In this document: piece after piece, positions 7,046 through 29,984 of the stretch
Layout of the letters: every line of letters begins with the position of its first letter
Numbering within the stretch: position 1 is the stretch's first letter
Assembly (NCBI GenBank): GCA_013265495.1
Contig: MU063896.1
Span: forward strand, 620,001 to 684,000
Origin: Vicugna vicugna
Lineage: Eukaryota
Length of the DNA: 64,000 nucleotides
Direction: 5' to 3'
Made by a program: the position numbers and the translations under genes
Notes under the pieces: generated by a model
Databases searched by the model: none
The model's input: only the letters and a program-made list of their open reading frames with translations
What the model was told of the DNA's origin: nothing

Positions 7046-7429
7046 AGTTTCGGCAGATCTGCAGCAAAAGACTTCATGGAATCGAACGCAAGAGAGCACC
7101 TTCCCAGCTCCGCCAGCTCGCTGCCAAAAGGAGCAACTCAGCTGGACAGTCTGAGGTCTGGGCAGGAAGGAGGAGGGGCAGGGGTCGCGGCAGTGCAGCC
7201 TGGGGAAGGGGCTGCGGCCTCACAGCCAGGGCTAGGCCCTACCCTCTGCCCTAGCTTTTGTGGAGGAAGACCATTCCCCAATGTCAGCTGACTCGCAGCC
7301 CTGCAAATCTTAAACGGGAACTCTGGACATTCTAGAAAATGCTGAAAGAAACCTTTTTATGTCTCCATTCTTCACTCACTACTTCCTCCTCACTCCTCTT
7401 CAAGGGCAGGGGAGGGACCTCCTGATGAG

Positions 7430-8520
7430 CCCAGGAAAATCCAAGGTAAGCGCAAAGGAATCTCCTGGCAGCTCTGCGCGGGGACGCCCCGAGTCCTGGT
7501 TGGGTGAGTTCCGCTCGCCCAGCTCACTAGAGAAACCTGCTTTTGCTCTGGCTCAGGCTCTAAGTCCTAAATCCACGTCCCAGTTGAGATCGCTGACACG
7601 TGTTTGAAAGCGCGGACACCTGTGCGAGTCCCGCCGCGGTCCCGCCAGAGGGGCGCGCGTCTGGCGCCGCCAGCCTGAGGGCTGCCTCCTCGGCGCACGG
7701 AGGCCTAACTGATTCTCCGGGTGGAAACCAGCACCCCCTCTCTGGGAAAAGATAAGAGGAGGTTTTGTCTTCAGTGCCTGGGGTACAGATACCGTACCCC
7801 AAGAGCGGGAGCCCGCCTGGCTAATCCGGGCAACCGCCCCAAACCCCGGGAACACAGCTGCGCTCCTGAAGAGACTGTTTTCAAAAACATGGCGCGAACC
7901 TGAGGCTGAAGCTGGATTCCCCACCTCTCCCCTCGCATCCCCACGTGGAATTTAAGACAGTCAAGTCCACAGTGCAGGTCTGAGCTTACCTACCCACCCC
8001 AGTCAGAGGCCGACAGGCCAGGGTGGAGGGCGTGCGGGTGTGGGAGCAAAACACCTGGGGCCGGGCCGGGCCGGGGTGCGGGGGCCCGTCCCCTAGCCGG
8101 GTGCCCGCGCCCCGGGCTGACATGGCTGCACGAAGTGGTAGCGCTGCGGTGTTTCACGCTGTGTCTCAGGCACTGCGCAAAATCCCTCTCGTGCATTCTC
8201 TCACTGGGAGACTGTGGGGAAAGGCCCCATTTTACAGACGAGGAAGCCCAGGAGGAGAGAGGTTAAGAAACTCACCCCAAGTGATGATGGCAGACTGTCT
8301 GCCGCCGGAGTCACCTCCCAAAATGAACACTAGGCTCTCACCTGTCGGATTTGCGACCGCCCCTCTGCCGGGAGAGCCGGGAAGGAGGGGCGGGAGCTCT
8401 CTCACCCTTTGTGGGCCAGGCGGAAACTCCATTCCAGCTTCCGTCGTGTGACTGGGAGGATAAGGCAGCTCAGACCTGCCCTCTCTTCCCATCTCTCACT
8501 GTGTCACTGCCCCCCTCTAC
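7430..8520. promoter_or_regulatory. CpG island
   Basis: Dense unmutated CpGs and high GC (e.g. cccgccgcggtcccgccagagg...cgcgcgtctggcgccgcc; gggccgggccgggccggggtgcgggggcccg) against a CpG-depleted background; YY1-like AAACATGGCG at ~7885-7894. Confidence 0.7.
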
Positions 8521-26586: not shown

Positions 26587-28359
26587 CTCCTTTGTTTTTA
26601 TTACAGCTTCACTTAACATCTGCAGACTGTGGAGCTGCAAAGGGCCTTGAAGGATTTGAAGTCCAGCACTTCGTTTTACAAAGGAGGAACCTGGAGCAAG
26701 GACGTCCTCCAAGGCACACAGCTGGGACCGGAGGTGTAAATTGTGTGACACCCCCCCCAGGACATCATTCCCGTTGGCAGGATGACAACATGGATGACAG
26801 GGTTGGAAACTGGAGTCTTACCAGAACTCTCCCCAAACCAGGATCTAAGCCTGTGTCCCAGACGAGCGGGAGCTTACGGGACTGACTCAGGGGCCCGGGT
26901 GGGCAGGGTGATGCACAGAGAGGGCTGGGAGGCAAAACCCAGTCATAAACAGGCACAGACTGATCAAGGTGTCTTCAAGAAAGTGGGGCAGACAGAGGGG
27001 ATCCAGGTACGAGGCCCTGGGTTGGCTTCAAGGCCTGGAGGTGGGGCAGAGAAGCAGCCCTCTTCCCTACCAGGGCTGCAGCGATCGGAGAGGTGGTTAA
27101 GGTGTCCAGCAGCTCTTGCCGCCTGCTCTTACAAACTGGACAGCTGTCTGAACTATCAACTCCATCAAATTCACAGTCAGCGTCAAAACCAGCGCAAGCA
27201 GGTCGATTTTTGTAGGTGCTTCATAGTATGAGCAAGACCCCACAGAGCAGCCCCTCCCGACGCTGGGCCCAGGGAGGGCTCTTCCCACCAGACCAAGCAG
27301 CTCATTGTTCAAGCAGAGCCTAAAGTTGTTGGAAAAAATAGATTTTTATTTCTTATCTATCAATGTTTTACCCTTCTCGCTTGGCCTGTGTGAACAAGAT
27401 AGGGCACTAGGGCTTTAGCTAATTTTTAAAAGTCCGTCTAGTTCCACAACGAGTAGCAGGGGGAGGAGTGGGTCCGCCATCCGGACTCAGCCAACTCGCA
27501 GGTGGAGCAGGTACTCTGGACCTCAATGTCTCCAATTACAGAAATTAAGATAGAAGGCGAAGAACAGATTTACCTAATGAAGGATGATTTTTCAGGACTC
27601 CTCCCCTACGTGCACAAGCACTTTTCAAGGCTTATAAGTAGTCTATATATAATTTGCATTCCTTTCTTTAAAAAGGCCCCCAAATGACATACACCTAAGC
27701 CTCTAAAATTTCGTCTAACCCCAGATGGCATCAGGTAACCAGTTCAGAGGTGCTAAAGAGTCATATTTTGAGGAAAGAACCCAAACTCCCTGAGACTGTC
27801 TCTGGCTTTTACTAGCTCCTTTTTTCCCTCCACCACTAAAACGTTGGTGATGTCGGTATCCACAGCAAGCTAACATCAGACATTCACGAACATGATTCTA
27901 TTTGAAAAGCCACAGAGCTTTGGGTTGCCATGGTGTCTCTTATTAATGAGGAACTTCCACAGTGAAAAATAAAACGAAGTTCATAAAAAATTCAGCTTGC
28001 CTAATTTGACGTGAAGGTTGCGAAGCAGGAGGAAGCCAGAAGGAGGAGAAAAATTAGGTAAAAAAGGCTATGAAGGAAAGATGGAGGCTGGTCAAAGGAG
28101 AGGAAGGAGCCTCCGCACAGGGTCCCCCTACAGCACAGGGGAGAACGTCACCCTGCCCCTGCTAATACTCTTAAGTAGCAACTGAGATCTCATCCAGCAA
28201 AGACCAGCTCTTTGCTAGAAGACTGATGGCACAATGTTATGAAGAGATTCAGTCATTGGTTTTTCATTCAACAAACGGTGTAAGTATTTGTCAGTAGACG
28301 CTGGGTTTACAATGGTGAGCAAAACAGATGTGGACCCTTGTTCCAGTTAGGAGGGTAAC

Positions 28360-28814
28360 TGTCAGCCTAGGGGGGCTGAGGAGGGATTCGAGGTAAGCTG
28401 CCCAGCTGGAAAAAATGCGCGAGCAGCCAACAGGCTACGAAACAACACTTTATCGCAGTACAAGCGGGTGGTGTGTGGCGGGGGCGGCGGCAGCAGCGGA
28501 GCTCAGCACTTTCTTCTAGTTCAACAAGAGGGCCATGCCCACGTGGTGCACTTGTCCTGCTTTTACCTGTTCTGCTCACACAAGCGCATTGTTCATTTCT
28601 TTGTTCATACCGCTTACATAACGCTACTAGCGCATGCGTACCTTTACTTTCTTTGTTCATAAGGCTTACAGAACTGGCGCATGCGTAGTGGTTACGCTTC
28701 TGGCGCATGCGTCTCACACTACTAGCGCATGCGTACACTTAACGTCTTACCCGGTGTAAGCTATTGTGAACTTTGGCCTGGGCCCCACGGCCTGGTCACT
28801 TAAGGCTGCTGACA
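28360..28814 (-). mobile_element. CpG-rich ERV solo LTR (family not assigned)
   Basis: Inverted termini TGTCAGC...GCTGACA. On the minus strand: repeat-rich U3, TATA-like GTAAAAG, poly(A)-signal-like GATAAA followed by a GT-rich tract. Flanked by L2 on both sides with no PBS or internal ERV sequence. TSD only 3/5 (gtaac/ggaat). Confidence 0.75.
28585..28734. promoter_or_regulatory. Cluster of four NRF1-type motifs and three SOX/HMG-type motifs in the LTR U3
   Basis: GCGCATGCGT at 28630, 28677, 28703 and 28725; CATTGTTC once and CTTTGTTC twice; E-box CCACGTGG nearby at 28539-28546. Confidence 0.6.
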
Positions 28815-29984
28815 GGAATACAGACAAGCAGAGGTGACCGCGTGCAGTGTGAGGTGTGCTTTGAGTGAGGAGGTACAGCATGTTAGAGGAGCACAAAGAG
28901 GGCATCTAATCCAGCTTTCGGGAGTCAGGAGACTTATGTTGTGGAGCGAGGAACCAGCTGAGGCCTGCAAGATGAGTAGGCATCTGTCAGAAAAAGGAAT
29001 GAGAAGCATGTTTTAGGCAGAATAAAGAGGGAAACAGTTGAGGGTTTCTGAAGCACTGTGGACCAGGTGTGTGTTGGGTTCTGGGAGGAGGACGGAGAAG
29101 GCATGACATAAGCAGGGGCTGGACACAGCGGTTTGGAAAGTCTGAATGAGGATGGTGAACTTTACCCTAAAGGTAATGAGATTGACTTTAGGAAACCACC
29201 CAGATGGTGTGCGGAGTGGACTAGAGAGAAATAAGGGATAAGAAGACCCATTAGGAGAAGACAGTGGCCTCAGTGAAGAGAAGTGACAGCCTTGGGAGGG
29301 AGAGATGTATATGGATTCAAAAAACATTAAAAGGTACAATGGATGTGCTTTGATAATTGGTTTGAAATGAAGTGTGAAGTGTCCGAGTGTCCAACAATGA
29401 CCTCAGGTACGTCTGGCTTGAGCAGTTGGGCGTCCAGATGGTAGAGCCGTTTGGAACGGCAGTGACTCCAGAAGGAGCATGTTTAGTGCTTCTGAACTGA
29501 ATCACCCATTAGGATAAAAGGAGGCTTCAGAATTCACAGCAGAAGGCCTGGAAAGATTGAGTTATTGAAGCAACGGAGGCCAGGGCAGAGGAGGAAAAGG
29601 TAAGAGGTTGGGCAGTCCAAGAGAAAAGATACTCAGATGAGAAAAGAAGGCTATAAAAACCATATGTACAATAAAATACACACAAAATATGTGCAAAGAA
29701 AAGATGCTGGCGGTATCTTCATGACCAGGTCAGCAGCAGTGAGATTACTGGTGATTTGTGTTTCCTTCTCCTTGAGTGGCTGTATTTGCAAAGCTAAAGA
29801 TTGTAAACAAATGTGTGTTTTTTTAATAATAAAAACAAGTTATTTTTGAAAAGTTGCTATGTAGGTGAGGGAAGATGATTAAAGGGCTTTTAAATTAAAG
29901 TGAAGCACTTAATTGGAAAGGGTAGCAACAACCCAGCTAGCGGACGCTGGAGGAGATAAGTGACATGATTTACCATGTCACAAA

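Follow-up and report, generated by a model that had tools for sequence, protein, structure and literature searches.

Class III endogenous retroviruses (ERVs) duplicate 5 bp of their target site, and within ERV-L elements the primer is tRNA-Leu. The ERVS lineage is described in PMC4724089 and PMC5753468 as lacking a dUTPase and carrying a class I envelope. Outside class III, unmethylated IAP LTRs of mouse spermatogonia are bound and activated by NRF1, according to PMC12420836. The element examined here is a 455-bp LTR at positions 28360..28814 of a 64,000-nucleotide stretch of Vicugna vicugna DNA (the window). Its family resembles HERV-S/HERV18, with their LTR18A-C (ERV3, ERVS), in the tRNA-Ser primer, the absence of a dUTPase match (at locus L137) and a putative short env-like remnant. 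However, it is a camelid expansion with its own LTR, and the likeness noted lies in internal traits. With ERV-L/MuERV-L (MLT2 and MT2 LTRs) it shares the 5-bp target duplication, complete in 40 of 70 copies, and the YIDD motif of the reverse transcriptase (RT), whereas the serine primer, the absence of a dUTPase match and a locus with nothing that points to co-option as an embryonic promoter set it apart. Mouse IAP LTRs offer another parallel, since in both cases CpG-containing NRF1-type sites would form a germ-cell enhancer under methylation control; IAPs are class II, young and active, while the camelid LTR is old, carries a weaker variant of the site and is a predicted target of binding. 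Equine EqERV-S, as described in PMC5682256, is likewise a Ser-primed ungulate ERV with members of several ages.

A solo LTR and its proviral relatives

The sequence-only reading had described a 455-bp, minus-strand insertion with inverted ends and a target-site duplication matching at 3 of 5 positions, and each of these points was confirmed. A sequence check placed the inverted termini TGTCAGC and GCTGACA at 28360 and 28814, respectively, and the two copies of the duplicated target (28355..28359 and 28815..28819, plus strand) agree at three of their five positions. The element thus displays the TG...CA ends, short inverted termini and target-site duplication of a solo LTR. Its orientation, with the U3 at the high-coordinate end, was taken from proviral relatives that carry a primer site and a polypurine tract. 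Among 70 other solo copies (seven proviral or mis-bounded copies were left out), the duplication was 5/5 in 40 and 3/5 or worse in 12, while a mismatch of two in five is expected in 7-15% of copies at this divergence. The poor duplication therefore fits the age of the copy and is uninformative on its use, although it had earlier been read as slightly favouring an element in use. Both flanks (28230..28354 on the left and 28820..29420 on the right), which we take to be L2, found no confirmation by nhmmer or genome search. Specifically, the genome search returned only the site itself, and nhmmer gave no other copy below E 0.1 in 863 kb of fetched DNA. The ORFs within the LTR (102-123 aa) had no Pfam match.

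A genome search with the LTR produced 406 candidates. Forty of them were scored; the best place of each was 70-86% identical and none was near-identical. Because an LTR query favours query-like copies, sampling was extended with two CpG-free 17-mers, which gave 30 and 49 matches, compared with 3 and 0 for the controls. Three of the 30 loci of the first motif (L045, L049 and L055) had no LTR and were dropped, and a 26-mer search that returned only 5 copies was too strict to serve as a sample. The final set comprised 81 distinct copies, 78 of them with both ends (L025, L079 and L091, which are not complete at both, were dropped), and 62 of the 77 other full-length copies carry a CpG-free sampling motif. 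Judged by these counts, 28360..28814 is one of dozens to hundreds of copies in the camelid genome. A search of published papers returned no camelid ERV-S family, and Dfam or Repbase may already contain this one under a name.

Elsewhere in the genome, LTRs of this family flank retroviral internal sequence. At L031, a deleted provirus, two LTRs spaced 3.1 kb apart enclose 2.6 kb of internal sequence in which a primer site, a pol remnant and a polypurine tract are recognisable, and the 5-bp flanks of the provirus match. LTR pairs were obtained at 20 of the 21 proviral loci (L140 had no usable pair), and in 15 of the 21 a tRNA-Ser primer site directly follows the 5' LTR. The complementary 15-mer of this site had 17 matches in the genome, 12 of which were fetched; five were proviral, and at all seven non-proviral loci scanned it lay inside a tRNA-Ser gene. 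One 46-kb segment (G000:C8693:60592-106572) contained eight matches to the tRNA-Ser 3' end, and the five that were fetched were all tRNA-Ser genes.

Proviral members retain gag-pro-pol remnants, and all proviruses seen were internally deleted or interrupted. Pfam analysis of three frames of L137, a member of a sister subfamily (stops read as X), recognised RVP, RVT_1, RNase H and rve, and gave no match to a dUTPase after the integrase at this single, internally deleted locus. The YIDD motif was present in the RT, and a short env-like remnant was recognisable by eye, without a Pfam match. Against PDB structures, in a library without a class III RT, the RT scored 131-135 bits with MLV-type, 120-124 with foamy-type, 78 with betaretrovirus-type (7sr6) and 40-55 with HIV enzymes, the virus names being in part those we presume for the matches. 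Because of the tRNA-Ser primer, the 5-bp duplications and the pol remnants without a dUTPase match, the family fits an ERV-S-like (class III) assignment, a name given from these traits. The earlier reader was right to see an ERV solo LTR of a camelid whose U3 carries NRF1-like repeats. The sister LTR subfamily, which is younger (L135-L139, L141-L143, L146, L149 and L150), flanks interrupted, deleted Ser-primed proviruses. Its proviral LTR pairs are 0.8-7.3% apart at non-CpG sites, so the Ser-primed lineage was still inserting long after 28360..28814.

Repeat units and other sites of the LTR

Four ACGCATGCGC units start at 28630, 28677, 28703 and 28725, exactly where the sequence-only reading had seen them, and their number is far above chance: eight matches on both strands compared to 0.87 expected, a count reached in none of 100 shuffles. 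All four lie on the minus strand. Unit 1 (28725..28734) is NRF1-like and one base off the 10-mer, unit 2 (28703..28712) is an extra unit with a private junction, unit 3 occupies 28677..28686, and unit 4 (28630..28639) is found in nearly all copies, with 70-71 of them informative. The NRF1 motif proposed earlier needs correction, as the exact 10-mer GCGCATGCGC, with its two GCGC half-sites, is absent from the LTR and each unit is one mismatch away from it (four single-mismatch sites). According to Table 2 of PMC10810270, the unit's core variant binds NRF1 in vitro with a Kd of 1.27 uM, about 4-fold more weakly than the 0.31 uM of the reference (isothermal titration, ITC); the oligonucleotide described there has the identical core variant and different flanks.

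The U3 also contains two 51-nt repeat units that are 73% alike. A search with the junction of the extra unit gave one true match, its own copy, and one chance match, so that this junction is private to 28360..28814. The related four-unit layout of copy L009 suggests that the extra unit was probably already there at insertion. Family copies carry 0-4 units, most commonly two, and this varying number accounts for LTR lengths of 285-499 bp. Such variation marks the ACGCATGCGC array, as far as the sampled copies tell, as an inherited trait of the family's U3 that is not peculiar to 28360..28814. Among the 78 copies, this is the only one with four intact units, and it has kept all 8 of its 8 unit CpGs.

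Three SOX-type sites, an E-box and a TATA-like box had been reported in the LTR, and all were present. The SOX-type sites (28587-93, 28599-605 and 28651-57; span 28587..28657, minus strand) have one to three counterparts in each of the 37 other long-type copies. In addition, the motif scan revealed TTATGTAA at 28614..28621 (minus strand), unnoticed by the earlier reader and presumably a PAR-bZIP/D-box-like site, which occurs once or twice per copy in 29 of those 37. From their distribution, the SOX-type and D-box-like sites are traits of the family. The core elements are decayed in this copy by comparison with its relatives. Specifically, the TATA-like box (28560..28567, minus strand) differs from the form present in 23 of the 37 other long-type copies, a motif that we take to be YY1-type is decayed at 28525..28533 (minus strand) and intact in 17 of the 37, and the poly(A) signal position at 28448..28454 (minus strand) lacks the canonical hexamer that 39 of the 77 other copies carry. 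The E-box CCACGTGG (28539..28546, minus strand) coincides with the decayed form of a family CpG site (alignment position 274, CG in 18 of 43 informative copies) and was likely produced by CpG decay.

Antisense to the LTR, a splice-donor-like site at 28390..28398 (plus strand) recurs in 29 of the 37 other long-type copies; it is strong and could cause exonisation of copies lying antisense in introns. A shorter LTR subfamily (L067-L109, 285-370 bp) combines a canonical TATA box with a TGAGTCA site between the units, presumably of AP-1 type. Locus L110 (G000:C12403:22543000-22547500) holds two independent, co-oriented solo LTRs about 650 bp apart, each with its own 5/5 duplication.

CpG retention, age and rate of change

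The sequence-only reading had counted some 25 CpGs by eye and judged the insert richer in them than its surroundings; there are 26, with an observed/expected ratio (o/e) of 0.80 compared to 0.27 for the window. Elsewhere in the window, 26 CpGs per 455 bp are reached only at a CpG island (7351-8425). Within the family, an o/e of 0.80 is reached by 18 of the 77 other copies (15 of 62 in the sample drawn by CpG-free motifs). The copy keeps 20 of 29 family CpG sites, the other nine having already decayed, against a pooled 1005 of 1695 (59%; p=0.19), and its pairwise retention of 0.68 ranks 21st of 78. Measured against its sampled relatives, it falls in the family's upper third for overall CpG retention, which is within binomial noise. 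Outside the units, 12 of 21 sites are kept, which equals the family average. Neither constraint nor CpG retention beyond that of sister copies was found, save for the 8/8 unit CpGs, which have a chance of 0.08 at the family unit rate and a one-sided p=0.03 against the copy's own 12/21.

Equal retention in all copies had earlier been named as counting against use of the LTR, and this was not what the copies showed. Retention values for the 78 copies, which are similarly diverged at non-CpG sites, spanned 0.17-0.94 (chi2 225, df 77) and tracked the CpG o/e of the flanks (rho 0.33, p=0.004). This overdispersion, together with the flank correlation, suggests that some copies were probably less methylated in the germline. 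A further difference separated the units from the rest of the LTR. In the 62 motif-sampled copies, 146 of 200 unit CpGs (73%) were kept. Nine anchored sites outside the units kept 160 of 311 (51%), and every one of these sites lay below the unit rate (0.39-0.66). Unit retention was the higher in 39 and the lower in 12 of 56 copies (Wilcoxon p=0.0007), and in 31 disjoint nearest-neighbour pairs it was 0.74 for units and 0.49 for other sites. Older proviral LTR pairs gave 0.65 versus 0.50 (p=0.14). Matching sites by ACGC/GCGC context narrowed the nearest-neighbour result to 0.74 versus 0.60 (p=0.04), and p rose to 0.13 once CpG gains had been roughly corrected for by hand. The better-kept unit CpGs are possibly a footprint of germline binding.

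At non-CpG sites, 28360..28814 is 9.0% away from its nearest copy (85.5% identical overall), with 9.7% for the ten nearest and a median of 9.4%, and in six proviruses with this LTR type the two LTRs differ by 5.1-9.2%. The earlier impression that the element is not very young holds up at this distance. Rates of 1.2-2.5e-9 per year translate into 16-40 million years, and the rate of 5e-9 per year, as used in PMC8605555, into 8-10 million years by simple arithmetic. The terminal branch of 28360..28814 measured 0.056, and 30 of the 78 copies had one as long or longer, in a tree built on 105 of 684 columns whose branch lengths are rough. By this comparison, the non-CpG sites of the copy are evolving at the family rate, without slowing.

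Genomic neighbourhood and competing explanations

Plus-strand exons of PKP4 lie upstream, the last coding exon ending about 29 kb from the LTR and on the opposite strand. These exons are 98.9-99.5% identical to five camelid proteins and 95.2-98.3% to nine others (horse, bat, primate, rodent and sirenian), so that among these groups, which do not include pig, cattle or whale, the host is placed with the camelids. Downstream, two plus-strand exons start about 64 kb behind the LTR; their weak Pfam DAP match (E 0.094) accompanies the name DAPL1, which we assume for them. The LTR is oriented toward the 3' end of PKP4, with DAPL1 behind it. No sense-oriented gene was found downstream of it, no sense-strand donor scoring above 4.5 lies between the TATA-like box and position 27300, and neither the 250 ORFs of the window (four sub-threshold Pfam matches) nor an exon scan contained a convincing coding exon. 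With this arrangement, the LTR could as a promoter yield only antisense or intergenic RNA, and it may act on DAPL1 as an enhancer. Among the papers listed by a literature search, none concerned an LTR at PKP4/DAPL1. Of the words of the 3-kb stretch, 0.11-0.32 occurred in five RNA runs and a further presumed RNA run, values that are not evidence of expression.

On the comparison with sister copies, we consider it quite probable that 28360..28814, a member of a multi-copy camelid ERV-S-like family, is no recruited promoter but a relic silenced by methylation and decaying neutrally. A provirus would have inserted some 8-40 million years ago, depending on the rate, and recombined between its LTRs to leave the solo LTR. 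The ACGCATGCGC array would have served the virus as its U3 enhancer, likely adapted to NRF1 for transcription in germ cells, as in mouse IAP, and the copy would now be mostly methylated and neutral, although NRF1 may still bind if it is demethylated. Its CpG-rich look would then reflect a CpG-dense source LTR, the survival of about 60% of family CpG sites to this age and a slower decay of unit CpGs throughout the family. Neither a target gene nor selective constraint is visible at the level of sequence. Counterpoints to the relic explanation are the four intact units with 8 of 8 CpGs, the overdispersed retention with its flank correlation and the better-kept unit CpGs of the family. Enhancer use, moreover, needs no TATA box, particular orientation or CpG excess, and sequence tests on 455 bp are weak at detecting recent co-option. 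Partly compatible with it is the idea that, without any co-option, NRF1 or a similar factor shields unit CpGs in germ cells, family-wide and most clearly in this four-unit copy. The gap between unit and anchored sites, its recurrence in nearest-neighbour pairs and in the same direction in older proviral LTR pairs argue for such shielding, as do the in vitro binding of the unit's core variant (PMC10810270) and the activation of unmethylated IAP LTRs by NRF1 (PMC12420836). The gap, however, shrinks with context matching and again after correction for CpG gains, the comparison of LTR pairs is not significant, source elements may have been unlike one another at the remaining sites, and flanking-sequence effects on methylation or deamination could mimic the pattern. 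We regard shielding as a tentative possibility that is more doubtful than not.

The sequence-only reading had slightly favoured a copy kept specially unmethylated through use. In concrete form, the LTR would either act as a germline promoter and drive an antisense non-coding RNA toward the 3' end of PKP4, or serve DAPL1 as an NRF1/SOX enhancer. Such a use might explain the four intact units, unique among 78 copies, the preserved three SOX-type sites and D-box-like site, and a filled site that is likely common to four or five organism labels, as 14 DNA runs contain 0.85-0.89 of the words of the 3-kb stretch where about 0.84 is the ceiling without the LTR, the lower values being borderline. Fixation is nevertheless expected anyway at the age of the insertion, and the unslowed non-CpG evolution, the ordinary overall CpG retention, the decayed core elements, the missing sense donor near the LTR and the orientation relative to the genes all speak against it, so that co-option appears very improbable. 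A simply young insertion with CpGs not yet decayed could draw on the recent proviral pairs of the sister subfamily (0.8-7.3% apart), but even the closest of the older copies sampled share only 72-80% identity with that subfamily, and there was no near-identical copy among the 40 scored. The 9.0% non-CpG distance to the nearest copy (85.5% identical overall) and the nine of 29 decayed CpG sites largely refute youth, which we consider the least credible explanation. Unlikely, too, though less so than co-option as such, is a combination in which the ERV-S LTR family bears a mutational footprint of NRF1 occupancy in the germline, with unit CpGs decaying about half as fast as its other CpGs, and 28360..28814, lying between PKP4 and DAPL1, would be bound by NRF1, partly free of methylation and active in germ cells as an enhancer or antisense promoter.

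The single locus matters little, being an aged solo LTR that has decayed as is typical of its family and has no gene to drive, and the family-level result on unit CpGs is the part worth keeping. If a factor does shield unit CpGs, LTR CpG decay would be a sequence-only readout of germline binding in species without ChIP. It would also suggest that a class III ERV relied on NRF1 to be expressed in germ cells, as mouse IAP does.

At 7351-8425 of the window, the CpG island (1075 bp, GC 0.61, o/e 0.64) is located about 8 kb beyond the 3' end of PKP4. No coding exon was found at the island, which is possibly a non-coding RNA promoter or an enhancer.
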